64,000 nucleotides of DNA, taken from positions 3,004 through 67,003 of the forward strand of contig JBAXQC010000007.1 in the NCBI GenBank assembly GCA_037131955.1, read 5' to 3'. Source of the DNA: Bacteroidota bacterium. Lineage in GTDB: Bacteria; Bacteroidota; Bacteroidia; UBA4408. Positions within the stretch are counted from its first letter, which is position 1, and each line of letters starts with the position of its first letter. A program made the position numbers and the translations under genes. The notes below the pieces were generated by a model. That model ran no database searches. It had not been told where the DNA came from and worked only from the letters and a program-made list of their open reading frames with translations. Shown here piece after piece: positions 5,828-59,920 of this stretch.

Positions 5828-6085
5828 ATGGAAGAAAGGAATTTTAGAAAAGAGAGAATCGGTGTTGTTACTAGCAATAAAATGGAAAAGTCTATTGTTG
5901 TTGCAGTTGAAAGAAAAGTAAAACACGAGAAATACGGAAAGTTCTTGAAACTTACCTCTAAATTTGTTGCTCACGACGAAAAAAATGAGTGCAGCATTGG
6001 AGATACCGTAAAAATAATGGAAACTAGACCTCTTAGTAAAAGAAAAAACTGGAGATTAGTAGAAGTAGTTGAAAAGGCTAAATAA
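5828..6085 (+). CDS. rpsQ: 30S ribosomal protein S17
   Basis: 85 aa of S17 family sequence ([28 protein letters not shown]). Confidence 0.9.
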
Positions 6086-6106
6086 TAACATTTTAATCAT
6101 TAAACA

Positions 6107-6475: not shown

Positions 6476-6486
6476 AAATTATTATT

Positions 6487-6801: not shown

Positions 6802-6848
6802 ATAACTAATAAATGTAGGATGGCCATTGCTAACCTGCGCTAAATAAA

Positions 6849-7409: not shown

Positions 7410-7429
7410 AGAAACTAAATAGCAAAAAT

Positions 7430-7699
7430 ATGGCTAAAGAATCAATGAAAGCCCGCGAGGTAAAAAGGGCTGCGATGGTTGCAAGATATGCAGAAAAACG
7501 TAAAGCTCTTAAAGAAGCTGGAGATTCTGTAGGTTTGCAAAAACTACCACGAAATTCTTCTCCTAACAGAATGAGAAGTAGATGTAAAATCACGGGAAGA
7601 CCAAGAGGATACATGAAAATTTTTGGTGTATCTAGAAACACATTCAGAGAATTGGCATTGAACGGAAAAATTCCGGGCGTAACCAAATCAAGCTGGTAA
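7430..7699 (+). CDS. rpsN: 30S ribosomal protein S14
   Basis: 89 aa of S14 sequence ([13 protein letters not shown]...[10 protein letters not shown]...). Confidence 0.9.
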
Positions 7700-7752
7700 A
7701 AAATAATAAACACAATATAAACTAATCGGATATCGATTGAAAAACAATCACA

Positions 7753-8148
7753 ATGACTGATCCTATCTCAGACTACCTAACAAGGTTAAGAAATGCTATA
7801 AAGGCAAATCACAAAATGGTGGAAGTTCCTGCTTCAAAAATGAAAAAGGAAATCACTAAAATTCTTTTCGAAAAAGGATACATCCTTAACTACAAATTCG
7901 AAGAAGACGCTAAACAAGGAGTTATTAAAGTGGCGTTGAAATTTAACCCAGTAACTAAACTAAGTGCAATTAAAGACTTAAGAAGGGTTAGCCGCCCAGG
8001 TTTAAGAAGATACACTGGTGTGGATACTATGCCAAGAGTATTAAACGGTCTTGGAATTGCCATCATTTCCACTTCTAAAGGTGTAATGACCGACAAGGAA
8101 GCTAAGGCTCAAAAAGTTGGTGGAGAAGTAATTTGTTACATATCTTAA
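7753..8148 (+). CDS. rpsH: 30S ribosomal protein S8
   Basis: 131 aa starting MTDPISDYLTRLRNA..., which is canonical for S8. Confidence 0.95.
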   Translation: MTDPISDYLTRLRNAIKANHKMVEVPASKMKKEITKILFEKGYILNYKFEEDAKQGVIKVALKFNPVTKLSAIKDLRRVSRPGLRRYTGVDTMPRVLNGLGIAIISTSKGVMTDKEAKAQKVGGEVICYIS

Positions 8149-8165
8149 TTTAAAAGGAGGAAATT

Positions 8166-8717
8166 ATGTCAAGAATCGGAAAACTTCCCTTATCTCTACC
8201 CAAAGGTGTTGATGTAAGTACAGCCGGACAAACTGTAAAAGTTAAAGGTCCGCTAGGAGAATTAAACAGAACTTTATCCGAAGGTATTTCGGTAACAATA
8301 GAAGATGGTATTGTAACTGTAGCAAGAGCTTCAGAACAAAAACATCACAAAGCACTACATGGTCTTTCAAGAGCGCTTATTGCAAACATGGTAAAAGGTG
8401 TTTCTGAAGGATTTTCTACTGAACAAGAATTAGTAGGTGTAGGGTATAGAGCTGCAAACACAGGAAACTTGTTAGAATTAACTTTAGGTTTCTCTCACAA
8501 CGTTGCATTTGAATTGCCAAAAGAGATAAAAATAGAAACTAAAACAGAAAGAGGTAAAAACCCAACCATCATCTTAAAGGCAATTGACAATGAATTGCTT
8601 GGACAAGTTGCTGCAAAAATAAGAAGCTTCCGTCCACCTGAGCCTTACAAAGGAAAAGGTATTAAGTTTGCGGGAGAAGTTCTTCGCAGAAAAGCTGGTA
8701 AGTCTGCTGGTAAATAA
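8166..8717 (+). CDS. rplF: 50S ribosomal protein L6
   Basis: 183 aa of L6 sequence (MSRIGKLPLSLPKGVDV...). Confidence 0.95.
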   Translation: MSRIGKLPLSLPKGVDVSTAGQTVKVKGPLGELNRTLSEGISVTIEDGIVTVARASEQKHHKALHGLSRALIANMVKGVSEGFSTEQELVGVGYRAANTGNLLELTLGFSHNVAFELPKEIKIETKTERGKNPTIILKAIDNELLGQVAAKIRSFRPPEPYKGKGIKFAGEVLRRKAGKSAGK

Positions 8718-8735
8718 TTTATAAAAGTAATTGTC

Positions 8736-9092
8736 ATGGCTATAACAAAAGAATATAGAAGAACACGAATTAAGAAAAGAATTCGTAAGGTAGTTACCGG
8801 TGATGCCGGAGCTCCAAGAATGTCTGTTTTTAGAAGTAATAAACAAATTTACGTCCAATTAATAGACGATGTTGCTGGAAAAACAATAGTTGCAGCAAGC
8901 TCAAAAATTGCAGACATTGCAGGAAAAAAAGTAACAAAAATTGAACAAGCTCAACTGGTTGGTAAATTAGTAGCAGAAAAAGCGCTTGCAGAAAAAATCA
9001 CTAGCGTAAGATTCGACAGAAACGGATACTTGTATCACGGTAGAGTAAAGGCTTTAGCAGAAGCAGCAAGAGAAGGTGGATTACAATTTTAA
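8736..9092 (+). CDS. rplR: 50S ribosomal protein L18
   Basis: 118 aa of L18 sequence ([18 protein letters not shown]...). Confidence 0.9.
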
Positions 9093-9108
9093 TCAGAAAA
9101 TTTAAAAC

Positions 9109-9624
9109 ATGTCAGTAAATTCAAAAAAAGTAAGGTCAAGCGATATTGAACTTAAAGATAAATTAGTTTCGGTACAAAGAGTTACCAAAGTAACCAAAGG
9201 AGGAAGAACTTTTAGTTTCTCTGCAATTGTTGTAGTAGGAAACGAAAAGGGAGTTGTTGGATACGGTTTAGGTAAAGCAAAAGAAGTAACCGACGCAATA
9301 TCAAAAGGCATTGAAGATGCAAAGAAAAACATGATTAAAGTACCAATTCTTCATGGTACTGTTCCTCACGAACAATACGGAAGATACGGTGGAGCTAGAG
9401 TTTTCCTTAAGCCTGCTGCTCATGGTACTGGTGTAATTGCAGGTGGTGCAATGAGAGCTGTTTTAGAAAGCGTTGGTGTAACAGATGTATTGGCCAAATC
9501 AAAAGGCTCTTCTAACCCACACAACGTTGTTAAAGCAACTATAGATGCTTTAGAACAAATGAGAGATGCTATTGCTATTTCTCAACAAAGAGGAATTTCT
9601 TTAGACAGAGTATTTAACGGTTAA
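9109..9624 (+). CDS. rpsE: 30S ribosomal protein S5
   Basis: 171 aa of S5 sequence ([27 protein letters not shown]...). Confidence 0.95.
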
Positions 9625-9816: not shown

Positions 9817-10263
9817 ATGGATTTAAATAGTTTAAAGCCTGCTGAAGGCTCAACAAAAAACAGAAAAAGAATTGGCCGTGGTCAAGGTTCAGGTAGAGGT
9901 GGCACTTCAACAAGAGGTCACAAAGGTGCTAAATCAAGATCAGGCTACTCTTCAAAAGTAGGATTTGAAGGAGGTCAAATGCCTTTGCAAAGACGTGTTC
10001 CAAAATTTGGATTCAAAAACATAAACAGAGTTGAATACAATGGAATTAATCTTGATGCAATTCAAAAACTAGTTGAAGCAAAAAATATTTCCAAAATTGA
10101 TCACCTAGTATTGGTTGAAAATGGATTGGCTTCAAAAAAAGACCTGGTTAAAATTTTAGGCAGGGGAGAACTAAAAGCAAAAGTTGAAGTTACAGCTCAC
10201 GCTTTTTCTCAAACAGCAAAAAACGCAATAGAAACTTTAGGTGGCTCTGCCACAACACTGTGA
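9817..10263 (+). CDS. rplO: 50S ribosomal protein L15
   Basis: 148 aa with a Gly/Arg-rich N-terminus (GRGQGSGRGGTSTRGHKG), typical of L15. Confidence 0.9.
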   Translation: MDLNSLKPAEGSTKNRKRIGRGQGSGRGGTSTRGHKGAKSRSGYSSKVGFEGGQMPLQRRVPKFGFKNINRVEYNGINLDAIQKLVEAKNISKIDHLVLVENGLASKKDLVKILGRGELKAKVEVTAHAFSQTAKNAIETLGGSATTL

Positions 10264-10274
10264 TTTAATCTTCT

Positions 10275-11615
10275 ATGAAGAATTTTATTCAAACAATAAA
10301 AAATATTTTTAGTATCGAAGACCTTAGGATTAGAATTCTAAACACCTTAGGTTTTCTGCTAATTTATAGGTTAGGTTCTTTTGTAACCTTACCTGGTGTT
10401 GATTCAGTTGCCCTTGAGCAACTAAAAGGCGATCCAGAAGGATTGGCCGGTTTAATTAACATTTTTGCAGGTGGTGCATTTTCTCGTGCTTCCATTTTTG
10501 CATTAGGTATTATGCCCTACATTTCTGCTTCAATTGTAATGCAATTGTTAGGAATGGCTGTTCCACATTTTCAAAGACTTCAAAGAGAAGGCGACAGTGG
10601 CAGGAAAAAAATTAACCAATACACAAGAATGTTAACCGTTGTAGTTACCTTGTTGCAAGCACCGGGTTATATTGCTTCTCAAATACCTAAAGAAGCCATA
10701 AACGAAAACATTTCTATGTTTTGGCTTTCTTCAATGATTATTCTTACTGCAGGAACTATGTTCATTATGTGGTTAGGAGAGAAAATCACCGACAGAGGTA
10801 TTGGAAACGGTATTTCATTAATCATCATGATTGGTATTATCGCAAATCTTCCAGTAGCATTTATACAAGAATTTGTTGCTAGACTAGAAAACCAAGGTGG
10901 TGGATTAGTAATATTACTGATTGAATTAGTTGTACTTTTCTTGATTATTGTGGTATCCATCTTATTGGTTCAAGGAACGAGAAAAATTCCTGTTCAATTT
11001 GCAAAGAAAATTGTTGGAAACAAGCAATACGGTGGAGTTCGTCAGTATATACCTTTAAAAGTGAATGCTGCAGGGGTTATGCCAATAATCTTTGCTCAAG
11101 CAATTATGTTTATTCCATTAACTATTGCAGGTTTTGCTCAATCAGAATCAATGAGCGGATTTGTAGCAACTTTTAGCGATTACACAGGCTTTTGGCATAA
11201 TTTTACTTTTGCCTTATTAATAATTGTGTTTACTTATTTCTACACGGCTATCACCATCAATCCAAATCAAATGGCCGATGACATGAAGAGAAACGGTGGT
11301 TTTATTCCCGGCGTTAAACCCGGCAAAAAAACAGCAGAGTTTATTGATAATGTGATGAGCAGAATAACATTACCGGGCTCAATATTCTTAGCATTTGTGG
11401 CAATTTTGCCAGCATTTGCAACCAAAGCAGGAATAAACGCTCAGTTTGCTCACTTCTATGGTGGAACTTCTTTACTAATTTTGGTAGGTGTTGTTTTAGA
11501 TACCTTGCAGCAAATAGAAAGTCATTTGTTGATGAGACACTATGACGGATTAATGAAGACTGGTAGAATAAAAGGAAGAAATGTAGCTAACTCAGCAGTT
11601 AGTTACGCAGGATAA
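10275..11615 (+). CDS. secY: Preprotein translocase subunit SecY
   Basis: 446 aa polytopic membrane protein in the expected position after rplO. SecY-like sequence throughout. Confidence 0.95.
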   Translation: MKNFIQTIKNIFSIEDLRIRILNTLGFLLIYRLGSFVTLPGVDSVALEQLKGDPEGLAGLINIFAGGAFSRASIFALGIMPYISASIVMQLLGMAVPHFQRLQREGDSGRKKINQYTRMLTVVVTLLQAPGYIASQIPKEAINENISMFWLSSMIILTAGTMFIMWLGEKITDRGIGNGISLIIMIGIIANLPVAFIQEFVARLENQGGGLVILLIELVVLFLIIVVSILLVQGTRKIPVQFAKKIVGNKQYGGVRQYIPLKVNAAGVMPIIFAQAIMFIPLTIAGFAQSESMSGFVATFSDYTGFWHNFTFALLIIVFTYFYTAITINPNQMADDMKRNGGFIPGVKPGKKTAEFIDNVMSRITLPGSIFLAFVAILPAFATKAGINAQFAHFYGGTSLLILVGVVLDTLQQIESHLLMRHYDGLMKTGRIKGRNVANSAVSYAG

Positions 11616-44135: not shown

Positions 44136-47100
44136 ATGAAGAAAGAAAATAGAGTTTTTAGGTTGGTGTTTCTGTTTGTTTTAGTGGCAACATTTTTTGT
44201 CAAGGCTCAAAAAACCACCATATACGTTAATCCTTCGGCACAATTAAATGAAGGAATATATTTATTTGAGCAGCAAAAATTTGTGTCTGCACAAAAGGCA
44301 TTGCAAGATGCCATTCCACTTTTTGCACCTTATTCCAAAGAAAGAGTAGATGCCGAGTTTTACATGGCATACTGTGCTTACGAATTGTTTAACGAGGATA
44401 CAGAGCCGCTGCTTTTAGAGTTTATTCAAAATCATCCCGAAAGCAATCGATCTAATTTGGCTATATTCTTAATTGGAAATTATTATTACAGAAACAAACA
44501 ATTAAAATTAGCATTGGCTTGGTACGAAAAAACAGAACCTGCAAAATTAAATTCAACACAAAGAGCAGAGCTCTATTTTAAAAAAGGATATTGCTATTTT
44601 ATGAAAGAGCAATACAGCAAAGCAAAACCATTGTTTGCAGAAATAAAAGACATTGAAAATACTTACGCAGCTCCTGCAACCTACTACTATTCGCACATAG
44701 CATATCTTGAGAAAAAGTATGAAATTGCTTTAGAAGGGTTTAAAAAATTCAGTAAAAATTCTACGTTTGGTCCAATAGTTCCCTACTACATTGCTCAAAT
44801 ATATTTCTATCAAAAAAAATATGATTTGGTAATAGAATATGGAATTCCAATATTGGATTCAACATCAACAAAAAGAGCCCCTGAAATTTCTAGACTTATT
44901 GGAGATTCTTATTATAAAACTGACAGATTTGAAGCAGCAATTCCTTATTTAGAAAAATATGTTGCAGGAAAAGGAAAGATGGAAAGACCAGATTTTTACG
45001 AGTACGGCTACGTTTACTATCAATCAAAAAATTACGACAAAGGAATAGAATATTTTCAAAAAGCAATTTCCGATAAAAGCGATAGTTTGTCTCAATTGAG
45101 CTATTATCACATTGGAGATTGCTATTATAAATCCAGTAAAAAAGAATTGGCAAGAAATTCTTTTGGCACCGCTTCAAAAATGGATTTTGAATTAAATGTA
45201 AAAGAAGATGCATTGTTTAATTATGCAAAGCTAGCGTATGAGCTGGAGTCAGATCCCTTTCATAATGCAATTACTGCGTTTAAAACATACCTCAAGTTGT
45301 ATCCAAAGTCAGATAAATACGACGAAGCATTTAATTTTTTAGTAAACGCCTTTTTGCGTTCAAGAAATTATACCGAGGCACTAAATGCTCTGGATGAGAT
45401 GCCAACAAAAACTTTGGCTTTGAAATTGGCTTATCAAAAATTGTCGTACTTAAAAGCAACAGAATATTTTAATAATGCTAAATACAACGATGCCATTGCT
45501 TTTTACAACAAATCTATGTTGTACGACAAAGATAAAAACCTAAAAGGGCAATCGGTGTATTGGAAAGGAGAAAGTTTTTTTCAGCTGAACGAAATTGATT
45601 CTGCAATTTTTTGTTTCAAAGATTTTTTGTTTTCTGCAATAGCGCCAAGTTTAGATATTTATCATGTTGCAAATTATTCTTTGGCCTATTGCTACCATTC
45701 CAGAAAACAATACGAACAAGCAAATAATTTTTTTAGAAAATTTATTGCATTAGCGCCAACAAAAGAAGGAAAAAAAATTACTGATGCAGCAATAAGAGTG
45801 GCAGATGGCTATTTTATGAACAGAGATTTTGCCGGTGCTCTAGAGTATTATACCATGGCCCAAGAATACAATAATTTTAATGTAGATTATATTTTGTATC
45901 AAAAAGCATTGGTTTTAGGCTTGTATGGAAAGAACGACGAAAAGGTAATCACACTTACTAAATTAATAGAGCAACATCCTAAGTCATCCTATATAGATGA
46001 TGGAATTTATGAATTGGCAGAGTGTTATTTAATTAAAAATGACAATCAACAGTCATTAGAGAATTTCAATAAATTAATTAGCACATTTCCTTCCAGTGTT
46101 TTGGTAAAAAAGGCACAAATGAAGGTTGCACTTATTTATAGAAATATAGACCAAGATGATAAAGCACTGGCAGCATACCAAGAAATTGTTACAAAATATC
46201 CAAACTCAGCTGAGTCAAACCAAGCTTTAAATTCAATTAGAGATATTTATGTTTCCGAAGGTAGGGTAGAAGAATTTGAAAAGTTTATCTCTTCTGTTCC
46301 AACACTTAAATTCCAAAACAGCGCTATTGATTCTGCTATGTACGAATCGGCAGAACTTAAATACATGAAAGGCGATTGCGAGACTTCTTCCAAAGCATTT
46401 GATACATATTTAAACAAATTTGAAAATGCAATTTTTGCATTAAGGGCAAACTATTTTAAAGCTGACTGCGATTATAAAAAAGGAAATTTAATTGAAGCAT
46501 TAAAGGGATTTGAATTTGTTGCATCCAAACAATCCTCCAGCTATACCGAAAAATCTGTACAATTAGCGGCTTATATCAATTATAAAAATAAAGAATTGGC
46601 CAAAGCTCTTCAATATTATCAGCAATTAGAAAAAGTATCTTCTGGCCCGGTAACACTTGCCGAAAGTAATGTTGGACAAATGAGGTGTAACATTAAATTA
46701 GGAAATTTTGATGAAGCAATTGTTGCAGCAAATAAGGTTCAGGCAGACGAAAAGAGCAGCAATGAATTAATAGCAGAAAGCTATTTAACAAAAGCAAAAT
46801 CATATTTAAAATTAAGGAGAGATTCACTAGCTATAAGGGAATTAAAAAATACTATAGCTAAAACAAAAAGCGAAAAAAGTGCAGAATCAAAGTTTTTGAT
46901 GGCAGAATTATATTTTAATAATGCCGATTACGAAAACTCAAAAAAGCAAGTTGATGAATTGCTTGAGCAAGATCCATCGTATGATTTTTGGGTTACAAAA
47001 GCGTACATTTTATATGCAGAAATATTTTATGCTAAAGAAGATGTTTTTAATGCAAAAGAAACATTGCAAAGTGTGATAGATAATTCAGAAAACACCGAAC

Positions 47101-47249
47101 TAGTAGAATTATCAAAAAGTAAACTAAATGCAATTATAGAAGCAGAAAAAAACAAAGAAGAAAAGTATAAGCAAGATGCTTTAGAAATAAAATTTGATAC
47201 AAATTCGTTTAAAGACAATCAACTATTTGAAGATGAAAACAAGGAATAA
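44136..47249 (+). CDS. Large secreted tetratricopeptide-repeat (TPR) protein
   Basis: 1037 aa with a signal peptide (no lipoprotein Cys) and >15 TPR-like helical repeats along its length. Confidence 0.75.
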   Translation: MKKENRVFRLVFLFVLVATFFVKAQKTTIYVNPSAQLNEGIYLFEQQKFVSAQKALQDAIPLFAPYSKERVDAEFYMAYCAYELFNEDTEPLLLEFIQNHPESNRSNLAIFLIGNYYYRNKQLKLALAWYEKTEPAKLNSTQRAELYFKKGYCYFMKEQYSKAKPLFAEIKDIENTYAAPATYYYSHIAYLEKKYEIALEGFKKFSKNSTFGPIVPYYIAQIYFYQKKYDLVIEYGIPILDSTSTKRAPEISRLIGDSYYKTDRFEAAIPYLEKYVAGKGKMERPDFYEYGYVYYQSKNYDKGIEYFQKAISDKSDSLSQLSYYHIGDCYYKSSKKELARNSFGTASKMDFELNVKEDALFNYAKLAYELESDPFHNAITAFKTYLKLYPKSDKYDEAFNFLVNAFLRSRNYTEALNALDEMPTKTLALKLAYQKLSYLKATEYFNNAKYNDAIAFYNKSMLYDKDKNLKGQSVYWKGESFFQLNEIDSAIFCFKDFLFSAIAPSLDIYHVANYSLAYCYHSRKQYEQANNFFRKFIALAPTKEGKKITDAAIRVADGYFMNRDFAGALEYYTMAQEYNNFNVDYILYQKALVLGLYGKNDEKVITLTKLIEQHPKSSYIDDGIYELAECYLIKNDNQQSLENFNKLISTFPSSVLVKKAQMKVALIYRNIDQDDKALAAYQEIVTKYPNSAESNQALNSIRDIYVSEGRVEEFEKFISSVPTLKFQNSAIDSAMYESAELKYMKGDCETSSKAFDTYLNKFENAIFALRANYFKADCDYKKGNLIEALKGFEFVASKQSSSYTEKSVQLAAYINYKNKELAKALQYYQQLEKVSSGPVTLAESNVGQMRCNIKLGNFDEAIVAANKVQADEKSSNELIAESYLTKAKSYLKLRRDSLAIRELKNTIAKTKSEKSAESKFLMAELYFNNADYENSKKQVDELLEQDPSYDFWVTKAYILYAEIFYAKEDVFNAKETLQSVIDNSENTELVELSKSKLNAIIEAEKNKEEKYKQDALEIKFDTNSFKDNQLFEDENKE

Positions 47250-48984
47250 AAAATATTTAAACTTGAAGTTTTTACTGCTGGTTATTTGTTTTCCTGTAAT
47301 TGTTGTAGCACAAAAAAGCGAAGGAAATTTAGGTGCTGAGCAAGTAAATGTAGTTCAAGGTTACAGCCCAACAGTTGCAGAGGCAGTAAAAATTAATGAT
47401 AATCCTGTTGTAAAAGATACTGTAGCGCCTGCTCCAAGAATTAAGTATTCGTTTTTACAAACAAAAATGGAAACTAATTTTATTCCTGATACCATTAAGC
47501 CCGCAAAAATGAGAGGAGAACCATTGGCGAAATTGTATCCGGGATTACTAAAAGTTGGTTTAGGAAATTATTCTACTCCTTTTGGAGAATTGTACTTAGG
47601 TAGTTTACGTTCAAAAACATATCAAGTGGGTGTGCATGTTAAACATTTTTCTTCTAACTATACAGCAAAGAACAGAGGCGATGCAGGGTTTAGCGATAAC
47701 TTGGCAGTTGCTAATGGTAAATATTTTGTAAAAGAACACATTTTGGCTGCAGAAATTGGATACAATAGAAATGCAAATAGATTTTACGGATACACTAATC
47801 GTTTGTTCGAAAATTATTTTGATACACTAAATAACAAGCAATTTTATCAATCGTTTAATACCACTGCAAGTGTTGAGAGTAGATTTGCAGATACAAATTT
47901 ATTACGTCACAAAGAAAAAATACATTACCGCTATACCAATGATAGATGGAGTTCCAGAGAGAATAATTTTTTAGTTTCAACAGAACTCAGTAAAAGATAT
48001 GGCAATGAAATTTACGGTGGTGCTTTGGAATGGAATCATTTTAATTATTTAATTTCACCTGAAGTAATAAGTGGTTTAACACCCATAAAGGCAGACATCT
48101 TAAAATTAAATCCTTTTGTAAAAGTTAGAAACAAGAGGTGGAATGCCGTTTTAGGAATTAATATGTTTTACGAAGTTCAAGACCAGTTTATACATTTTTT
48201 TCCTAATGTTTTGGTTAATGCCGTGCTTTGGGAAAATGTTGCTTCGGCATATTTATCAGTGAATGGAGCAACTACTAGAAACAGTTTTTATTCTGTATCG
48301 CAAATTAATCCATTTATAATTACACCATTAAATACATTTAATACCAATACGCCAATAGATGCATTGTTGGGTGTAAAAGGAAAAATAAGCAAAGAGCTCT
48401 CGTATAATGTTTCTGGTAATTACAAACTCATTCAAAACATGCCTTTATTTGTAAATCAAATAAATTATTTTGCTAACTATAATCAGGAAGACGCTCCAGG
48501 AAATATACCGCATGATTTTAGGTATATTTTAATTGACGACGATTGCAATTACTTTAATGTTTCAGGATTTTTGTCGTATGAATTAAACTCAAAAATAGTT
48601 GTTGATTTAAAAGGTAATTATTACAACTATAAAATGGCAACAGAGCAAAAGGCTTGGTTTAAACCTTTGTATGATATTTCTTTGGCTGCAAATTACAGAT
48701 TAGAAGAAAAGTTTAATTTTAAGTTAAATGTATTTTATATTGGTCAGCAATTTGGAAAAAGAGTTTACCCAAATAGCAATTTCACTGGATTAATTCCAGA
48801 TAATTTTGATGCATACAAAATCAAATCATGGGTTGACCTAAATCTGGGAGCAAACTATCAATACAATAAAAGGTTAGGGGCTTTCGTTTCTGTAAATAAT
48901 ATCTTAGGAACAAGGTATCAAAGATGGTTAGATTATCCCACTCAATCGTTTAATTTTTTGATAGGAGCAACACTATCTTTTTAA
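47233..48984 (+). CDS. Hypothetical outer-membrane beta-barrel protein
   Basis: Signal peptide after MKTRNKKY... and alternating amphipathic beta-strand sequence, with a C-terminal ...LIGATLSF (terminal Phe). The start overlaps the TPR gene's end by 17 nt. The track's 47194 start is rejected. Confidence 0.5.
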   Translation: MKTRNKKYLNLKFLLLVICFPVIVVAQKSEGNLGAEQVNVVQGYSPTVAEAVKINDNPVVKDTVAPAPRIKYSFLQTKMETNFIPDTIKPAKMRGEPLAKLYPGLLKVGLGNYSTPFGELYLGSLRSKTYQVGVHVKHFSSNYTAKNRGDAGFSDNLAVANGKYFVKEHILAAEIGYNRNANRFYGYTNRLFENYFDTLNNKQFYQSFNTTASVESRFADTNLLRHKEKIHYRYTNDRWSSRENNFLVSTELSKRYGNEIYGGALEWNHFNYLISPEVISGLTPIKADILKLNPFVKVRNKRWNAVLGINMFYEVQDQFIHFFPNVLVNAVLWENVASAYLSVNGATTRNSFYSVSQINPFIITPLNTFNTNTPIDALLGVKGKISKELSYNVSGNYKLIQNMPLFVNQINYFANYNQEDAPGNIPHDFRYILIDDDCNYFNVSGFLSYELNSKIVVDLKGNYYNYKMATEQKAWFKPLYDISLAANYRLEEKFNFKLNVFYIGQQFGKRVYPNSNFTGLIPDNFDAYKIKSWVDLNLGANYQYNKRLGAFVSVNNILGTRYQRWLDYPTQSFNFLIGATLSF

Positions 48985-49031
48985 TTTAGTAATTGCGGAT
49001 ACCTTTATTTGCTAGGAACATATAATTTTAT

Positions 49032-50477
49032 ATGATAAGATTTTGTTTTCTTTTTGTTTTTTCGTTTAGTTTTTCATTGGCTCAAGTTTCAAAAAGCACG
49101 GAGATAAAATCTTCTTCTATCATAGGAAGCTCTGCTATAAATGGTGAAGCATTGTTAGAAATTACGCCAAAGAGAATTGAAAAATTTAAGGTTGAAAAAA
49201 ATAAATCAAACGAAGTAAATTTTAGTGTTCCGTTTGCAGGTGCACAAATAGAAAATAAGAAGGACAAAAAGAAATTGAGAGACAAAATAATTCTAAGTGT
49301 TCAATTGTATTATTCTTCCTATAAATTAGCTAAAGATTTTTCTCAACCTATTTTAAATAAATCAAGGTTTGATTCCTTACTTAAGATTATGCCTTCGCTC
49401 AAGAAAAATACATACGTAAAATGGGAAGTTTTTGAGCAAACTGGTGCTAAAAAAGAAGAAGACGCAAAGAAATTATTTCACGGATTTAGAATTACATATT
49501 GTGATGCTCCAACTGAGGAATCGGCAAGTGATGAATTGGACTATTTTAAGAGAGTTTTAAGCCTGGATTCTTTGGGTTCATTTGAGAATATTGTTGAAGA
49601 AAAATATAAGATAAAAGCAAAGACATTTAAAACTGGTTACGATCCAATTTTAAAAAGCAGAAAAGAAAAGAAAATTGTTTACAGTAAAAAAGGAATACTC
49701 AACAGGAAAGAACATATTGATGTTGCTGCACCAGAAACTACAATTATTAAGAAAGTAGTTGGTCGTAGATATATTCCGCCCAAAGGACTTTCAATAGATT
49801 ATGAAGGATTTAGGTCTCCATTAGGCATTCCTTACGTTAAACAGCATTTAGATTCTACAGTATTTAAGGCATTAAGCAGAATTAACATCACTACAAATAA
49901 CACCTTAATTGTGGTTGATGTAACCGGCAGCATGGCACCTTATTCTTTACAGATTTGCTTGTGGAATAGACTAAATTTTAAAACTGGTGAGTCTAACCAT
50001 TATGTTTTATTTAATGACGGCGATGCCAAGAGCACTAATCAAAAGAAGATAGGAAGCACAGGTGGTGTATATCCAATTAAAATTGACTCAGTAATCGATC
50101 TCGAAAAAAATATGATTAAGGTAATGCAACGTGGATTTGGCGGTGATATTCCGGAAAACAATTTGGAAGCAATTATCGCTGGAATCAAAAAATTTCCAAA
50201 TACAAAAGAAGTCATTATGATAGCTGATAATTTTGCAGCTGTTAGAGACATGGTGTTGCTAGAAAAAATTAAAACTCCGGTGAAAGTTATTTTATGTGGC
50301 GTTTACGATTTACGATACAATTGTGATTATTTAAATATTGCAAAACAAACCAAAGGAAGTTTGCATACAATGGAAAATGATTACATCAATTTACATTCCA
50401 TAAAAGAAGGGGAAGTGCTAGAAATGAAAGGGTTTAACTATAAGTTAATAAAAGGCAAATTTCAGCCGGTGTTCTAG
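49032..50477 (+). CDS. Secreted protein with a C-terminal von Willebrand factor A (vWA)-like domain
   Basis: 481 aa with a signal peptide. A MIDAS-like motif LIVVDVTGSM sits in a Rossmann-like alternating pattern. Confidence 0.45.
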   Translation: MIRFCFLFVFSFSFSLAQVSKSTEIKSSSIIGSSAINGEALLEITPKRIEKFKVEKNKSNEVNFSVPFAGAQIENKKDKKKLRDKIILSVQLYYSSYKLAKDFSQPILNKSRFDSLLKIMPSLKKNTYVKWEVFEQTGAKKEEDAKKLFHGFRITYCDAPTEESASDELDYFKRVLSLDSLGSFENIVEEKYKIKAKTFKTGYDPILKSRKEKKIVYSKKGILNRKEHIDVAAPETTIIKKVVGRRYIPPKGLSIDYEGFRSPLGIPYVKQHLDSTVFKALSRINITTNNTLIVVDVTGSMAPYSLQICLWNRLNFKTGESNHYVLFNDGDAKSTNQKKIGSTGGVYPIKIDSVIDLEKNMIKVMQRGFGGDIPENNLEAIIAGIKKFPNTKEVIMIADNFAAVRDMVLLEKIKTPVKVILCGVYDLRYNCDYLNIAKQTKGSLHTMENDYINLHSIKEGEVLEMKGFNYKLIKGKFQPVF

Positions 50478-50537
50478 AAATATTGCAAAATAACTTTACT
50501 TTTGAACACTAACACAATCACTTAATTAGAAAATAAC

Positions 50538-53246
50538 ATGAAAAAATTTATAAAAATAGCTGCCCTTGTTTTTGTTTTAATGTTTGCTGTTTTAATTTCC
50601 ATACCTTTTTTATTCAAAGATAAAATTGTTGCAAAAGTTAAGGAAGAAGCAAATAAAAATTTAAACGCTACCGTAAATTTTGGTGAATTTGACATTTCAA
50701 TCATTTCCTCATTTCCTAATTTAAAATTCTCAATAAACGAACTTAGTATTATTGGCAAAGATGATTTTTTAGGAGATACATTAATTTTCTCCAAGATTAC
50801 AGCGTTAAATTTGAATTTGATGAGTGTGATAAAAGGAGAAAAATATCAAATAAATTCGATAGTAATAAATAATGCTACAATTAATGCATTGGTTAATAAA
50901 TTAGGGAAGGCAAATTGGGACATTTCAAAACCAAGCGAACCAAGCGCTCCAAGTGCTGAATCTAGTAATTTTAAAATGCAACTTTCCAAGTTTGAAATTC
51001 AAAATTCAAAGATCGTTTACGACGACAAACAGATGGGTTTTAAAACAAAATTAATTGGATTGAACCATACATTAAGGGGAGATTTTACTCAGGATGTTTT
51101 TTTAATGGAAACGTTTACAGAAATTGAAAAATGGTCTATGATGTATGGAGGTATCGCCTATCTGAAAAACGTTAGAACAAAAATTAAAGCAGATCTAGAT
51201 GCAAATATGCCTGAATTTAAATTTACATTTAAAAAGAACGAATTTGAGTTGAATGATTTAAAGTTAGGACTAGACGGATACTTTGCAATGCCCAAAGAAG
51301 ACATGGACATGGATTTGAAATTTAATTGTGCACAAACAAGTTTTGCAAGTTTTCTTTCGTTGATTCCAGGCTGCTATACCGCCGATTTTAAAGATATAAA
51401 AACAAAAGGAAGTTTTTCATTGTCGGCTTTTGTTAAAGGTATTTATAATGATAAAAAAATGCCTGCATTCGCCATAGATTTAATCGTTTCAAATGCCAGC
51501 TTTCAATACCCTTCATTGCCAAAATCAGTTAACAACATTAACCTTGACGTTAAAGTAAAAAATCCCAATGGAAATCCTGATAGAACCGCAATTGATATAA
51601 ATAAATTTCATGCAGAGATGGGCAACAATCCTTTAGATGTGGCCATGCATATTTTAACTCCAGTAAGCGATCCCTTTGTTGATGGTACAATTAAAGGAAG
51701 AGTTGATTTGAATTCGATAAAAGAATTTGTTCCATTAGAAAGCGATCAAAAATTAAGCGGGGTAATTACTGCTGATGTTTATTTAAGAGGAAATAAATCT
51801 ACTATCGACAACAAAAAATATTCTGAATTTATTGCAAAGGGAAATTTTATGGTAGAGAACATGAATTATGTAAGTAAAGAAATTCCTTACGGCATGTCTA
51901 TTTCAAAAGCAGTATTAAACTTTACTCCTAAAGCTGCAGAGCTAACTCAGTTTAATTCTAAAATTGGAAAAAGTGATTTAAATGCATCAGGTAAAATTGA
52001 AAATTTTATTGGTTATGCTCTAGCAGACGAAAAGCTGAAAGGTAAATTTTTAGTGAATTCAAATTACCTTGATGTGAATGAAATAATGGGAGAGCAAACT
52101 ACTCCTGAAACAGCAGCAGATACCTCTAAGTCAGGCATTGTAGAAGTTCCTGCAAACATAGATTTTGAGCTAGACGGAAATTTTTCTAGAATGTTGTACA
52201 GCAACATGGACATGAGAAATGTAAAAGGTAAGATAGTAGTCAGAGACAGCAAGGTTTCTATGCAAGATTTATTTATGCTTTTATTAGACGGTTCAATGGT
52301 ATTAAATGGTAGTTATTCTACTGCTAATCTTAAAAAGCCCGAAGTAGATTTTAGCATGAAAATAGATAATTTTGATTTATCAAAAACTGTAAAAACTTTC
52401 AATACCATAGAAAAATTAGCCCCCATAGCAAAACAATCTAATGGTAAATTCTCTACTTTATTGGCTTTTACATCTAATTTAAAACAGGACATGAGTCCGG
52501 AGCTTACCACTTTAAATGGTGAGGGCAAACTACAAACCAAGCAATTAGTTATAACAAACTTTCCTATGTTCAGTAAAATTGCCGATGCTATTAAAATGCC
52601 AGAGTATAAAAACCTGCCATTAAATAATACTAATCTTTCATTTTCTTTTAAGAATGGGAGAGTTAACGTACAGCCGTTTGACGTTAAAATAAAAAATTCT
52701 GTATTTAATATTGGGGGTTCACAAGGATTTGATCAAACAATAGATTATAAAGTAAAAGCAGAGGTGCAAACAAAAGATTTAGGGGCCGGAGCAAATCAAG
52801 TGGCCTCTAACCTAACAGCATTGGCGAACTCAAAAGGAGCAAATTTTTCTGTTGGAGATAAAATTACTTTAAATATGGTTGTTACAGGAACTGTGGCGGA
52901 TCCAAAATTAGATGCTGGTTTATCTGATTTAAAGAATAATTTAAAAGATCAGGCAAGAGCAGAGTTAGAGAAAAAGAAAAAGGAGTTAGAAGATAAAGCA
53001 AGAGCAGAAGCAGATAAAAAGAAGGCAGAGTTGGAGAATAAAGCCAATGCAGAACTCGAAAAGAAGAAAACAGAATTGGAGGCAAAGAGAAAAGCAGAAG
53101 AAGATAAACTAAAAGCAGAGGCAGATAAAAAGAAGAAAGAATTAGAGGAAAAAGCAAAAGCAGAAGCAGAAAAAAAGAAAAAAGAAGTAGAGGATAAAGC
53201 TAAAAAAGAAGCAGAGAAAAAGCTGAAAGGCTTATTTGGAAAATAG
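50538..53246 (+). CDS. AsmA family (TamB/AsmA-like) envelope protein with a C-terminal Lys/Glu-rich tandem-repeat coiled coil
   Basis: 902 aa with an N-terminal TM anchor and an AsmA-like beta-rich body. About six 15-aa repeats (ARAELEKKKKELEDK...) at the C-terminus. Confidence 0.55.
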   Translation: MKKFIKIAALVFVLMFAVLISIPFLFKDKIVAKVKEEANKNLNATVNFGEFDISIISSFPNLKFSINELSIIGKDDFLGDTLIFSKITALNLNLMSVIKGEKYQINSIVINNATINALVNKLGKANWDISKPSEPSAPSAESSNFKMQLSKFEIQNSKIVYDDKQMGFKTKLIGLNHTLRGDFTQDVFLMETFTEIEKWSMMYGGIAYLKNVRTKIKADLDANMPEFKFTFKKNEFELNDLKLGLDGYFAMPKEDMDMDLKFNCAQTSFASFLSLIPGCYTADFKDIKTKGSFSLSAFVKGIYNDKKMPAFAIDLIVSNASFQYPSLPKSVNNINLDVKVKNPNGNPDRTAIDINKFHAEMGNNPLDVAMHILTPVSDPFVDGTIKGRVDLNSIKEFVPLESDQKLSGVITADVYLRGNKSTIDNKKYSEFIAKGNFMVENMNYVSKEIPYGMSISKAVLNFTPKAAELTQFNSKIGKSDLNASGKIENFIGYALADEKLKGKFLVNSNYLDVNEIMGEQTTPETAADTSKSGIVEVPANIDFELDGNFSRMLYSNMDMRNVKGKIVVRDSKVSMQDLFMLLLDGSMVLNGSYSTANLKKPEVDFSMKIDNFDLSKTVKTFNTIEKLAPIAKQSNGKFSTLLAFTSNLKQDMSPELTTLNGEGKLQTKQLVITNFPMFSKIADAIKMPEYKNLPLNNTNLSFSFKNGRVNVQPFDVKIKNSVFNIGGSQGFDQTIDYKVKAEVQTKDLGAGANQVASNLTALANSKGANFSVGDKITLNMVVTGTVADPKLDAGLSDLKNNLKDQARAELEKKKKELEDKARAEADKKKAELENKANAELEKKKTELEAKRKAEEDKLKAEADKKKKELEEKAKAEAEKKKKEVEDKAKKEAEKKLKGLFGK
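52950..53225 (+). repeat. Coding tandem repeat: about six imperfect 45-nt units encoding the K/E/A-rich 15-aa repeats of the AsmA-like tail
   Basis: The units gcaagagcagagttagagaaaaagaaaaaggagttagaagataaa, gcaagagcagaagcagataaaaagaaggcagagttggagaataaa and so on are visible in frame. Confidence 0.7.
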
Positions 53247-56912: not shown

Positions 56913-57308
56913 ATGAATGCAAGTAGAGTTGAAAATTCCTATTCTCAGTTTAATAATGTTCTAATCAACACCAATTATCAGTATGTTAGTCAAGCTTGGC
57001 AACCTAGCTATTCTCAATACAACTACTACGAATTGTTTACCCCAAACAGTATAGACGAAACAAACTTCAATGCAATTTCAATGTATCCAAATCCATGTAA
57101 AAATTCAATAACAATTTATGGAAGTAATCTCTCGGGAATTTCTCAACTTAATGTTTTTGATGTTACAGGAAAAAATGTTTTTGCTTTACAATTAAGCAAT
57201 TTAGGTCCACTAGTAAATGTTCCAGTAAATAATCTTTCAAAAGGCACTTACATTGTAAGCATCGCAAACAATGGCCAAACAAGGTTTAGTAAGTTTGTAA
57301 AAGAGTAG
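56913..57308 (+). pseudogene. Probable remnant: isolated T9SS C-terminal sorting domain ORF lacking a signal peptide and cargo domain
   Basis: The 131 aa ORF's C-terminal ~80 aa (MYPNPCKNSITIYGSNL...GTYIVSIANNGQTRFSKFVKE) is a Por secretion tail. The N-terminus is low-complexity and has no signal peptide. Confidence 0.4.
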
Positions 57309-57328
57309 TTTACTTCATCTAATAAATT

Positions 57329-57361
57329 AAGGCGATGCATTTTGTGTTTCGCCTTTTTTTA
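57329..57361 (+). terminator. Rho-independent terminator (shared 3' region between the converging CTD-fragment ORF and the minus-strand OMP gene)
   Basis: Stem AAGGCGA(57329-57335)/TCGCCTT(57349-57355) followed by a T7 run. Confidence 0.55.
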
Positions 57362-58489
57362 GTTTTTGTAACACACCGAAAAGGTAAACATCAAGTTATC
57401 TTTTTTTAGAGAATTTAGCTCTCCAAAAATATCTTGTGAGTTGTAGAGTTTTTTTGCCTCCAATCTAAAGAAGAAATTTTCTTTCAGTTTATAATCAGCA
57501 TTAATCGAAACTCCATTCAAGTTTACTTGCACTTGGCTTGGCAGCAAAGGAAGAATTACTGCATTATTTTTAACGGTATAGTTTTCAAGTCGTAATGCAA
57601 AATTTAAATTAGCACTTGGTTTAAAGGCAACAACAATTTGAGGCGAAAACCAATGGTCAATTGTTTTGGTGAATGCATTTTCTTGTATGCCATAATCTAG
57701 TCCAGCAACAAACTCAAACTTATTTAAAAGTTGTTTTTTATAATACACATTATTAAAAAATCGGTAATACAAAAAACCTGCATTTTTGCCTTGCACCAAA
57801 ATGTTGCTTAAATTTATACTACTAGTTTTAGAAAAACTATACAAAAGTTGAATGCCAGCAGCTGGCTCAAATTCAAAATTTATAGGATATATTTTTTGCC
57901 AGCCGTTTAAAAGTAGAAATGCAAAATATATTTTTTGATTGGTGCTTGTGTAGGATAATCTAATTCCGCTTTCGAAATAAGGACTGTTTTCTGCTGCAAT
58001 GCTTCTGGTTAAAGTTAAGTTATCTGCTCCAATGGCACTCTCAAACCCTATGTGCGAAGGAAGCACTCCTGCATCTAACCATAAGTTTTTTCTCTTTGAT
58101 ATTTTGCATCCAACGTTTGCCTCAAAAATGTTCTTTACAAATCCTCTTTCATTAGAAAGATTTACATTGGCGTAAGTTCCAAACATTGGGCTAAAACTAA
58201 AACGCCAATACTTTTTTTCAAGATTCAGTTTTACAAAAAAAATATTCGTAGAAAAAGTTCTAGTAGAGGTGTGGTTGTATAAAAAATTAGACCTGTTGTA
58301 AATTTTATTCTCTCTTGCATCTACTGCATAATATGCTTCGGCATACACACTAGTATTTATGTATGTATTGGTATTTGAGCTGTCAACTGGAGCTTGGGCT
58401 ATTGCAATTTTTAAAGAAAAAACAAAACCAATAATAAGAAATAAAAATAGTTGAATACTTTTCCCTTTTTTATTCAACACAAAATTCAA
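57359..58489 (-). CDS. Hypothetical outer-membrane beta-barrel (porin-like) protein
   Basis: 376 aa with a signal peptide (AIAQAP) and alternating beta-strand pattern. It abuts the cyanophycinase gene (stop/start adjacent). Confidence 0.4.
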   Translation of the reverse strand: MNFVLNKKGKSIQLFLFLIIGFVFSLKIAIAQAPVDSSNTNTYINTSVYAEAYYAVDARENKIYNRSNFLYNHTSTRTFSTNIFFVKLNLEKKYWRFSFSPMFGTYANVNLSNERGFVKNIFEANVGCKISKRKNLWLDAGVLPSHIGFESAIGADNLTLTRSIAAENSPYFESGIRLSYTSTNQKIYFAFLLLNGWQKIYPINFEFEPAAGIQLLYSFSKTSSINLSNILVQGKNAGFLYYRFFNNVYYKKQLLNKFEFVAGLDYGIQENAFTKTIDHWFSPQIVVAFKPSANLNFALRLENYTVKNNAVILPLLPSQVQVNLNGVSINADYKLKENFFFRLEAKKLYNSQDIFGELNSLKKDNLMFTFSVCYKN

Positions 58490-59365
58490 TTAATGATCTG
58501 TTTTTGCTACCTCAACGTGGTCAGAGAAAAACTTTCTGGATTTTACGTTGTAATGATTTCCTTTGGCCATAACATGAATAATTAGATGTTCAATAGAAAG
58601 TGGAGCACCATGCTCTACATCTGCAATGTTAGAATGCTTAATTTCATGACCATCAAACAATATAATTAATCCACTTCCTATTGCTTCAAGTTTATTGCCC
58701 TCGGTTACCAAGACTCCAGTGTCTTCGCCCAATCCAATTCCAATGCAACCAGGGTTTCCTGCCACAGCTTCGGCCAATCTTCCAAATCTTCCTCTGGTTA
58801 CAAAATGAGAATCAATAATCACATTATTCATAAAGGCTAATCCTGTTGTAATTTTAACTTCCCCTTTCATCAATGCCACTGATGAGCTTCCCTGATAAAT
58901 CATGGTGCTACTCATAGCCATTGCACCTGCACTAGTTCCTGCAATTACAAAGGATTCGTTTTCGTACCTTTCGTGTAGAATTTCCAAAAATTTTGTTCCT
59001 CCAAAAATCATAGAAAGTCTCATTTGATTACCGCCGGTAAACATTACCCCGTCACAATTTTTTATTCGTTCTAAAAATTCAGGAGTATCAGATTCTTCTC
59101 TCTTTTTTATATGCAGCACACCTACATTTGAGCAGCCCAATTTAGCAAATGCATCTAAGTAGTTTTGACCCACTTCTTCAGGTATAGAAGAAGCAGTGGT
59201 TATTACCTCAACTCTGGATTCAATGCCTTTCATTTCTTTCAGGAATCTTTTTAAAATTCCAAACTCAAAAAAATTAAGGTGGTCTTTTTGTGTAAATTTT
59301 GGTTCAATGGCAGTTCCTTTATCTTCGTTTCCGCCAATGGAAATAAGTATTCCTTTTGGTATCAT
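58490..59365 (-). CDS. cphB: Cyanophycinase-like peptidase (MEROPS S51 family)
   Basis: 291 aa of S51 sequence with the Ser nucleophile motif GTSAGA and a CphB-like N-terminus (ILISIGGNEDKG). Confidence 0.65.
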   Translation of the reverse strand: MIPKGILISIGGNEDKGTAIEPKFTQKDHLNFFEFGILKRFLKEMKGIESRVEVITTASSIPEEVGQNYLDAFAKLGCSNVGVLHIKKREESDTPEFLERIKNCDGVMFTGGNQMRLSMIFGGTKFLEILHERYENESFVIAGTSAGAMAMSSTMIYQGSSSVALMKGEVKITTGLAFMNNVIIDSHFVTRGRFGRLAEAVAGNPGCIGIGLGEDTGVLVTEGNKLEAIGSGLIILFDGHEIKHSNIADVEHGAPLSIEHLIIHVMAKGNHYNVKSRKFFSDHVEVAKTDH

Positions 59366-59503
59366 TAAAATCGTTTTATTTTAGTTTCCCCCCGATATTT
59401 AGATTCCAAATATAGGTAAGTTAACATTCAGGCAAAATAAAACCTTTAAAAACTTACTAAATAGCCACATTTTACAAAAAACATAGGAATATTTACTCAA
59501 TAA

Positions 59504-59534
59504 TTTGATAATTAACAAAAAGAGTTTACTTTTG
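59504..59534 (+). promoter_or_regulatory. Putative Bacteroidetes sigma-A promoter (-33 TTTG / -7 TAnnTTTG) for rpsF-rpsR-rplI
   Basis: TTTG at 59504-59507, a 19-nt spacer, then TACTTTTG at 59527-59534, about 32 nt upstream of the rpsF ATG. Confidence 0.4.
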
Positions 59535-59566
59535 CAGTCCTTTTTAAAAATTTAAACAAAAAGAAC

Positions 59567-59920
59567 ATGTTAAAAAATTATGAAACCGTTTTCATTTTGA
59601 CTCCCGTTTTGTCTGATGATCAGGCAAAGGAAACGGTAAACAGGTACAAAGATTACCTTAAGCAAAATGAGGTGCAATTGTTGCACGAAGAAAATTGGGG
59701 CCTTAAAAAATTGGCTTACCCTATCAACAAAAAATCTTCTGGATTTTATGTTTTATTTCAATACCAAGCACCGGGAACATTTGTTGCCGATTTGGAATTG
59801 GCAATGAAAAGAGACGAAAGAATGCTTCGTTTCTTAACTGTTTCCTTAGACAAATATGCTTTGGAATACGCCGATAGAAGAAGAAATAAAAGATCAGAAA
59901 AGAAAGAAGTAACCGCTTAA
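59567..59920 (+). CDS. rpsF: 30S ribosomal protein S6
   Basis: 117 aa (MLKNYETVFILTPVLSDDQ...) of S6 family sequence. Confidence 0.9.
   Translation: MLKNYETVFILTPVLSDDQAKETVNRYKDYLKQNEVQLLHEENWGLKKLAYPINKKSSGFYVLFQYQAPGTFVADLELAMKRDERMLRFLTVSLDKYALEYADRRRNKRSEKKEVTA

Follow-up and report, generated by a model that had tools for sequence, protein, structure and literature searches.

A cphB-type cyanophycinase gene separated from cphA1 and followed by a lineage-specific porin gene in a Bacteroidota bacterium

Cyanophycin, or multi-L-arginyl-poly-L-aspartate, is a nitrogen reserve made by CphA1, and CphB is a Ser-His-Glu exopeptidase that frees beta-Asp-Arg dipeptides from the polymer. On a contig of an uncultured Bacteroidota bacterium, a gene for an S51 peptidase is followed directly by a gene for an outer membrane beta-barrel protein. 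The first-pass annotation had called the peptidase an orphan and had suggested that the pair might scavenge exogenous cyanophycin or beta-Asp-Arg peptides. The question is whether the two genes form a functional unit, or whether a cyanophycinase gene for endogenous turnover has an incidental neighbour. The window, meaning the whole stretch of DNA that was analysed, is 64 kb long, and it was compared with the corresponding loci of related bacteria.

The peptidase gene, cphB, lies at 58490..59365 on the (-) strand and encodes a protein of 291 aa. The protein scored 214.3 bits against TIGR02069, the cyanophycinase equivalog (cut-off 126.6), with its residues 7-271 aligned to model positions 1-249 of 250, and 79 bits against Pfam Peptidase_S51. 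The nucleophile motif IAGTSAGAMAM corresponds to residues 141-151, with S145 inside GTSAGA. The N-terminus is MIPKGILISIGGNEDKG, and in-frame start codons are absent upstream of the cphB start. Because residue 7 already aligns to position 1 of the model, a signal peptide has no room, and the protein is predicted to be cytoplasmic. Among solved structures, 7UQV (E 5e-51) and 3EN0 (E 1e-37), both cyanophycinases, are the nearest; every strong PDB match is a cyanophycinase, and identity to the solved cyanophycinases is ~31-40% over the aligned parts. These matches identify the window peptidase as a bona fide standard cytoplasmic cyanophycinase (CphB) with the corresponding predicted activity, in agreement with the first-pass annotation, which had recognised a cyanophycinase-type S51 peptidase without a signal peptide. 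An identical protein (P0001) is already called cyanophycinase by NCBI and JGI; the gene is correctly annotated and belongs to a well-studied enzyme family.

The catalytic triad of Synechocystis CphB, S132, H174 and E201 (numbering after Law et al. 2009), aligned to S145, H187 and E214 of the window protein in the 3EN0 alignment (chain numbering +20). In the same alignment the pocket residues Q101, D172, R178, R180 and R183 of Synechocystis CphB corresponded to Q114, D185, R191, R193 and R196. H174 and R178 of CphB bind substrate (PMC12661447). The triad and these five pocket residues were invariant across 108 cphA-linked homologues. The equivalent of Synechocystis Q173 is S186 in the window protein; every Bacteroidota homologue examined, cphA-linked ones included, has S or T there. 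Eight positions (F35, K43, K88, M119, G203, V220, F237 and L256) are fixed in the subclade of the window protein and rare in cphA-linked homologues, and none of them is a known active-site residue. A neofunctionalised active site was also considered, but no evidence for it emerged, as the catalytic and pocket residues are the same as in the cphA-linked homologues. The dN/dS of cphB was 0.025-0.03 (0.025 in the comparison with a relative whose locus is 80% identical at the nucleotide level). CphB retained 96% amino-acid identity within this locus of 80% DNA identity, a level comparable to that of ribosomal protein L9. cphB is under strong purifying selection, and the enzyme is predicted to have been kept functional.

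The window protein falls in a large CphB clade of Bacteroidota, in which cphB normally stands head-to-head with cphA1. The survey consisted of 81 non-redundant loci, composed of those from 80 other species (60-82% identity), minus one without a recovered S51 ORF, plus the window lineage and two relatives at 72-75%. A locus was informative if cphB was flanked by 3 kb or more in each direction, or if a synthetase gene was already visible (n = 73). A gene for a synthetase of ~880 aa was found within 10 kb of cphB in 52 of these 73 loci, and among the loci of the 80 species it was within 1 kb in 39. This neighbour is a cyanophycin synthetase by its Pfam domains (Cyanophycin_syn, ATP-grasp and Mur_ligase_M/C). 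Among 80 metagenomic cphA loci, 70 had an S51 gene within 1 kb of cphA. The window belongs to a subclade of seven loci, none of which has cphA within 10 kb of cphB, and this subclade has lost the linkage.

Linked and unlinked copies of cphB can be found in the same genome. One 1.86-Mb contig (the L005/L177 genome) carries an unlinked CphB copy that shares 75% identity with the window protein, and ~1 Mb away a cphA accompanied by a CphB of its own. These two CphB copies are 80% identical to each other and each is 74-75% identical to the window protein; an assignment of the window copy to a separate class of unlinked paralogues is unsupported, because the two copies are closer to each other. The lack of linkage in all seven loci of the subclade also fits a real loss of cphA in the group. 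Of 739 genomes that encode a cyanophycinase, 658 also encode CphA1, and the genes are unclustered in 19% of those 658 (PMC10206079). The term orphan is borne out for the window locus only; the same CphB clade adjoins cphA1 in most related species, and copies of both kinds can coexist.

Pfam scans of ORFs of at least ~140 aa outside the ribosomal-protein cluster found no cphA, iaaA, iadA or cphZ in the 64-kb window, and no amidohydrolase, Asparaginase_2 or AstE_AspA protein or adjacent inner membrane transporter. Searches of the window by tblastn and phmmer with one Bacteroidota CphA, one IaaA and one PTR2 transporter gave zero matches, in line with the first-pass annotation, which had noted neither cphA nor an isoaspartyl dipeptidase gene there. 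A close Bacteroidota CphA also gave zero matches by tblastn against the loci of the lineage. Past the end of the window, a further 10 kb of the same public contig (L001) brought the total to 74 kb and contained none of cphA, iaaA, iadA and cphZ. A metagenome scan with Bacteroidota CphA returned 80 loci, none of them from samples holding the species of the window, and all CphAs returned by a protein search with Bacteroidota CphA were at least 82% identical to the query.

The second gene of the pair, at 57359..58489 on the (-) strand, encodes a BBP2 / OmpL-like outer membrane porin of 372-376 aa. The 376-aa ORF matched PF07642 with 206 bits (gathering score 26.2; E 1.2e-60), porin residues 44-374 covering model positions 2-337 of 339, and its N-terminus is signal-peptide-like. 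The count of 376 aa begins at a TTG immediately after the TAA stop of the peptidase gene, as the first-pass annotation had described. Public gene calls place the start 3-4 codons later, which gives 372-373 aa and a gap of 9-12 nt after cphB, and translation probably begins at GTG 58480 or TTG 58477. The porin is thus downstream of cphB on the same (-) strand at a distance of 0-12 nt. The dN/dS of the porin was 0.15-0.17, and the values of 0.025 for cphB and 0.17 for BBP2 against the relative locus of 80% identity indicate that both are real genes.

In the sub-lineage of the window, cphB is now divergent from rpsF-rpsR-rplI. A candidate Bacteroidota -7 element, TATATTTG, which is a consensus match to TAnnTTTG, is located at 59407..59414 on the (-) strand, 49 nt before the cphB ATG; a TTTG follows ~20 nt further upstream. 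In a scan of 57300-59600 (-) it was the sole copy upstream of cphB, and there were 0 copies from there to the BBP2 start; the background of this motif across the window is ~0.9 copies per kb per strand. A sigma-70 promoter scan, which is uninformative for Bacteroidota, gave 6 sites against 9.3 expected, and TAnnTTTG was used instead. Just after the BBP2 stop, facing a convergent ORF at 56913-57308, RNA folding predicted a terminator-like hairpin at 57329..57355 (-), whose 7-bp stem (AAGGCGA...UCGCCUU) is followed by a U-rich tail. Its dG was -9.7 kcal/mol (z -3.4), and none of 200 shuffled sequences folded equally well. The hairpin was missed by a simple terminator scan, probably owing to its long loop. 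From this arrangement, cphB and BBP2 are probably co-transcribed. The near-zero gap and the retention of both genes across ~20% nucleotide divergence mark them as a stable pair, and selection for co-expression could be the cause.

Only a single genus-level lineage has the pairing. It was present in loci L001-L004, L090 and L191, whose CphB proteins are at least 94% identical to that of the window, and BBP2 was found by neither blastp nor a custom HMM near cphB in the 80-82% relatives L091 and L010 or in any of the 80 other-species loci. The HMM was built from 120 homologues and a distant 458-aa member. On this count of 0/80, a conserved partnership of BBP2 with CphB was rejected. In a second, unrelated lineage, an iaaA-cphB-cphA cluster has genes for a distant BBP2 porin and a PTR2 peptide transporter as neighbours. 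In total, BBP2 adjoins cph genes in only 2 of ~160 independent loci, which is estimated to be about the chance level.

Inside the lineage, homologues of the porin are 98, 86, 84 and 64% identical, and identity then falls to ~42%. The nearest homologues outside it (38-42% identity, E ~1e-70) come from three unrelated genomes, where their genes are inserted in kdp potassium-uptake operons between kdpC and kdpD. Pfam scans found no kdp genes in the window, and a sequence search found no solved structure resembling the window porin. The kdp context of these homologues is weakly informative, as the window porin is a paralogue only ~40% identical to them. Most likely, the porin forms a general or ion-type outer membrane channel and has no specific role in cyanophycin use.

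We consider it probable that the window encodes an ordinary CphB of endogenous cyanophycin turnover, and that the porin is an incidental neighbour. A rearrangement would have parted cphB from cphA1 in the sub-lineage of the window, and the BBP2 gene would have come to lie 0-12 nt downstream of cphB in the closest genus-level lineage only. The single promoter-like element upstream of cphB would drive both genes, and the transcript would end at the hairpin after the porin gene. The most likely substrate of CphB would be cyanophycin that the cell itself produces from a cphA at another place in its genome, and the function of the porin is most likely unrelated to cyanophycin.

Another explanation is that cphA has been lost, that soluble fragments of exogenous cyanophycin or beta-Asp-Arg enter through BBP2, and that co-expressed CphB finishes their degradation in the cell. 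The lack of nearby cphA in the whole subclade, the short gap with one promoter-like element and the persistence of the pair while the porin diverged to 64% are consistent with this, as is the cluster with a BBP2 porin and a PTR2 transporter in the other lineage. Scavenging of cyanophycin or its dipeptide is also documented in other bacteria, including a Bacteroidetes isolate with a "cyanophycin utilization locus" (PMC10206079, PMC9974463). However, a cytoplasmic exo-cyanophycinase without a signal peptide works on the polymer and not on porin-sized dipeptides, which argues against scavenging by the pair. Such dipeptides need IaaA, IadA or CphZ together with an inner membrane transporter, and the window has neither. 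Where a genome lacks cphA1, its cyanophycinase gene is clustered with iaaA or iadA 45 times out of 52 (PMC10206079), unlike at the window locus. The chance-level association of BBP2 with cph genes, the restriction of the pairing to one genus-level lineage and the kdp-linked porin homologues also speak against it. Scavenging by the pair, as the first-pass annotation had proposed, lacks comparative support and is unlikely. It is very doubtful that a lineage without cphA keeps the cphB-BBP2 operon as a minimal module for cyanophycin from other microbes, for example bloom cyanobacteria, with the fast-evolving porin as the entry route. If true, this would be a porin-dependent route of uptake, not one dependent on SusC/D or CphE.

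The very strong purifying selection despite the lost cphA linkage might instead mean that, in a genome without cphA, the enzyme serves another role: it might hydrolyse some other beta-aspartyl or isopeptide polymer, or take part in arginine metabolism by protein-protein interaction. An interaction of CphB with ArgD is described for cyanobacteria (PMC12661447), and the eight subclade-fixed positions could be taken as signs of such a role. None of them is a known active-site residue, however, and the identity of all catalytic and pocket residues with those of cphA-linked homologues does not indicate changed specificity, so that we regard another role as quite unlikely. The first-pass annotation had also named a PepE-like dipeptidase as an alternative. 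An alpha-aspartyl dipeptidase of this kind would share the S51 fold and the nucleophile motif, and the PepE model NF003642 did match weakly. This match reached 20.5 bits against a cut-off of 156, whereas the cyanophycinase model gave 214 bits; the strong PDB matches are all cyanophycinases, and orthologues of the window protein adjoin cphA. The assignment to PepE is ruled out on these scores, and we consider this explanation exceedingly improbable.

The pair itself is of small significance, as the porin is a lineage-specific neighbour of a known enzyme gene. The modest value lies in the survey: cphB is as a rule linked to cphA in this Bacteroidota clade, one subclade has lost the linkage while the enzyme remains under very strong constraint, and unlinked and linked CphB copies can share one genome. 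This is of use when metagenomic bins are interpreted as cyanophycin "producers" or "scavengers".

Among known systems, PepE has the S51 fold and the Ser nucleophile in common with the window protein, which fails the PepE model. The BBP2 porins of kdpFABC-kdpD operons in Bacteroidota belong to the same Pfam family, PF07642, and are the best matches of the window porin outside its lineage, although the window porin is outside any kdp operon and is only ~40% identical to them. CphE, the extracellular enzyme of cyanophycin-scavenging Pseudomonas and other bacteria, is found in organisms without cphA and shares the S51 family and the reaction with the window protein. CphE has a leader peptide and is larger (~420 aa in P. 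alcaligenes; PMC3235067), whereas the window protein is leaderless and CphB-sized. The Bacteroidetes "cyanophycin utilization locus" (Ben Hania et al. 2017, summarised in PMC10206079) is likewise from Bacteroidota and has a cyanophycinase without adjacent cphA. Its cyanophycinase genes are, however, accompanied by iadA and a transporter, while the window locus has neither an isoaspartyl dipeptidase gene nor an inner membrane transporter, only the porin. CphB itself (MEROPS S51; TIGR02069; 3EN0 of Synechocystis, 7UQV/7UQW) is the closest in kind. The window gene is not beside cphA1 and its Gln173 equivalent is Ser, yet the protein has the same length class, the absence of a signal peptide, the GTSAGA motif, the Ser-His-Glu triad and the Gln/Asp/Arg pocket in common with CphB, and its orthologues adjoin cphA1.

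Judged from its sequence, the 291-aa product of the ORF at 58490-59365 (-) is a CphB-type cyanophycinase. It matches Pfam Peptidase_S51 (79 bits) and carries the GTSAGA motif at residues 143-148, and because residue 7 already aligns with position 1 of the cyanophycinase model in the profile alignment, it is predicted to lack a signal peptide; ORF, Pfam match and model alignment all agree here with the first-pass annotation. The score against TIGR02069, the NCBIfam cyanophycinase equivalog, is 214.3 bits (cut-off 126.6), and that against the PepE equivalog is 20.5 bits (cut-off 156). These HMM scores rule out the PepE-like dipeptidase proposed earlier as an alternative, which keeps a very small probability. 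Strong PDB matches were to cyanophycinases only (7UQV, E 5e-51; 3EN0, 1e-37; 7UQW). In the 3EN0 alignment (chain numbering native +20), S145/H187/E214 of the window protein correspond to Synechocystis S132/H174/E201, and Q114, D185, R191, R193 and R196 to Q101, D172, R178, R180 and R183, which we take to be the triad and pocket residues of Synechocystis CphB listed by Law et al. 2009. H174 and R178 bind the substrate (PMC12661447). Triad and pocket are invariant in the window protein, its subclade and 108 cphA-adjacent homologues. The sole departure from the solved enzymes is Q173 to S186, and all Bacteroidota homologues, cphA-linked ones included, have S or T there. An identical public protein (P0001) is already called cyanophycinase by NCBI and JGI. 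The window protein has all features of CphB at the sequence level, and only the contextual one, adjacency to cphA, is missing at this locus.

Neither cyanophycin synthetase nor isoaspartyl dipeptidase nor CphZ turned up in the window by Pfam scans, phmmer or tblastn, which confirms what had been noted for the first two; outside the ribosomal-protein cluster, Pfam covered ORFs from ~140 aa upwards, and CphA, IaaA and PTR2 were the phmmer/tblastn seeds. The outer-membrane barrel described directly after the peptidase is a BBP2 'OmpL-like' porin of 376 aa at 57359-58489 (-) (PF07642, 206 bits, E 1.2e-60, nearly the whole model covered). The TTG that starts this ORF lies immediately 3' of the TAA that ends the peptidase gene; in public gene calls and in homologues the start is placed 3-4 codons further on, so that 0-12 nt separate the two genes. 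Upstream of cphB there is a single match to the Bacteroidota -7 consensus TAnnTTTG, at 59414-59407, 49 nt before the ATG and with TTTG ~20 nt further up, and no further copy lies between this candidate element and the porin start. The porin stop is followed by a hairpin (57355-57329; dG -9.7 kcal/mol, z -3.4) that has a GC-rich stem of 7 bp and a tail rich in U. The short gap, the single promoter-like element and the hairpin make co-transcription of cphB and BBP2 likely.

The G+C content of ~33% and the T9SS sorting domains on neighbouring genes both fit Bacteroidota, and public Bacteroidota MAGs contain a protein identical to the window CphB. Beyond the porin, a 131-aa ORF at 56913-57308 (+) is made up almost entirely of a T9SS C-terminal sorting domain; a 487-aa T9SS-tailed protein occupies the matching position in a sister strain (L003), and the ORF may be a truncated remnant of such a protein. 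Three large ORFs in succession at 47194-53246 (596, 481 and 902 aa) match no Pfam family and are preceded by a 1037-aa TPR protein at 44136-47249.

The relative L191 has the synteny of the cphB locus, with a T9SS-tailed beta-lactamase, rplI, rpsR and rpsF divergent from cphB-BBP2, and the two loci are 80% identical in nucleotides. Amino-acid identity is 93% for L9 and 77% for the beta-lactamase. Within the presumed operon (57359-59365 against L191:2967-4974) the rate contrast is sharp, with 96% for CphB and 64% for BBP2; this is typical for surface-exposed proteins, yet striking between neighbouring genes. By NG86, cphB has a dN/dS of 0.025 in the comparison with L191 and of 0.030 with a second relative, L090; the BBP2 values are 0.17 and 0.15. 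Such ratios indicate that both genes are functional, with cphB under very strong constraint.

For linkage to cphA, one genome per GTDB species was scanned. The 80 loci obtained encode a CphB that shares 60-82% identity with that of the window; all but a few, which are MAG records under other names, carry a Bacteroidota label. In called and clustered ORFs, the commonest cphB neighbour is a gene of ~880 aa, usually divergent and at most a few hundred bases away, identified as cyanophycin synthetase by its Pfam domains (Cyanophycin_syn N-domain, ATP-grasp, Mur_ligase_M, Mur_ligase_C). In 39 of the 80 species loci, no more than 1 kb separates it from cphB. Linkage was counted over 81 non-redundant loci, namely the 79 of 80 species loci with an S51 ORF recovered, L001 from the window lineage, and L005 and L007, relatives at 72-75% CphB identity. 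The synthetase gene is within 10 kb in 52 of 73 informative loci; 21 of the 81 have none despite 3 kb or more of sequence to either side of cphB, and 8 are too short for judging. Conversely, an S51 gene lies within 1 kb in 70 of 80 metagenomic cphA loci, and in 61 that S51 gene is accompanied by an Asparaginase_2 (IaaA) gene no more than 2 kb away. A neighbour-joining tree places the window protein in a seven-locus subclade (L010, L001, L090, L091, L011, L013, L015; 75-100% identity), and none of the seven has cphA within 10 kb. The closest outgroups are mixed, with L177, L016, L012, L014 and L097 linked and L005 and L007 unlinked.

In Chitinophagaceae-type loci (L085:4082-11600, L084, L079, L073, L087), cphA and cphB are separated by a class-V aminotransferase-like gene (432 aa), in many cases together with an amino-acid permease (440 aa), and cphB is followed by a GDSL/SGNH hydrolase (226 aa). 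Since for many Bacteroidota it is not known which protein acts as isoaspartyl dipeptidase (Sharon and Schmeing, PMC10206079), these conserved neighbours could merit testing for that function.

An unlinked cphB does not imply the absence of cphA. On the 1.86-Mb contig Ga0456371_00000003, an unlinked CphB (P0086, L005:10001-10885) lies at ~1.2 Mb and cphA with its own adjoining CphB (L177:3940-7619) at ~0.23 Mb; the two copies are 80% identical mutually and 74-75% to the window protein, P0086 being at 75%. Some Bacteroidota genomes hold two CphB genes; in this one the copies are ~1 Mb apart, one of them beside cphA. L007 has an S51 gene at 10001-10873 and a second from 20830 onward, ~10 kb downstream. 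Upstream of cphB, L005 and L007 each have ~5.5 kb (about 4000-9600) without called protein genes, which may be an rRNA operon. Among complete genomes, 658 of 739 that encode cyanophycinase also encode CphA1, the two genes being unclustered in 19% of the 658; where CphA1 is absent, cyanophycinase and isoaspartyl dipeptidase are clustered in 45 of the 52 genomes having both (PMC10206079), which is not the window pattern. From these survey figures, we would place the prior for a cphA elsewhere in the window genome at roughly 60-75%.

The cphB-BBP2 pair was found in L001-L004 (CphB identical), L090 (94.5%) and L191 (96%). At 80-82% CphB identity it is missing, as L091, where the T9SS beta-lactamase is directly divergent from cphB, and L010 have no BBP2. 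By blastp and a custom HMM (120 BBP2 homologues and a distant 458-aa member), BBP2 is beside cphB in none of the 80 species loci. With the HMM, the sole other lineage with BBP2 near cph genes was L100/L187-L190, with a complete cluster ordered GAF sensor, iaaA, cphB, cphA, methyltransferase, 458-aa BBP2 and PTR2/MFS transporter (L187:6023-14370). Two lineages in ~160 independent loci is, by our estimate, close to chance, on the assumption that a Bacteroidota genome carries a few BBP2 genes. By sequence, the window porin has no match among solved structures. Its homologues are 98, 86, 84 and 64% identical in the lineage and then fall to ~42%. All three outside homologues looked up belong to kdpFABC operons, where they are flanked by kdpC and kdpD (L093:6001-7077, Flavobacterium; L094:6001-7083, Dyadobacter; L095:6001-7077, an uncultured relative on a JGI contig), a position that points to ion-type rather than peptide channels. 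It suggests that Bacteroidota use kdp-embedded BBP2 as an outer-membrane channel dedicated to high-affinity K+ uptake. In L095, CorA and Kup genes follow the porin.

The best reading, which we hold with moderate confidence, is that an ordinary cytoplasmic CphB would mobilise cyanophycin made inside the cell. Its gene would have been relocated away from cphA in the window subclade, and in one genus-level lineage BBP2 would then have come to lie downstream of it, the two having no specific link in function. The first-pass annotation had suggested that the pair may serve the scavenging of exogenous cyanophycin or beta-Asp-Arg peptides. For this the cell would have to bring polymer or oligomer through both membranes, or else possess a dipeptidase plus a beta-Asp-Arg transporter; nothing of the kind is encoded at the locus and the pairing is confined to one lineage, so we consider scavenging unlikely. 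A new role for the enzyme appears slightly less probable still, and the unchanged active site lends it no support.

The finding is real yet ordinary, as the identical protein is publicly annotated and the gene order is lineage-specific. A cyanophycin utilization or scavenging locus comprises cyanophycinase, isoaspartyl dipeptidase and transporter (PMC10206079), and the window locus falls outside this definition. The window porin shares its family with the kdp-operon BBP2 porins but stands outside the kdp-embedded group.
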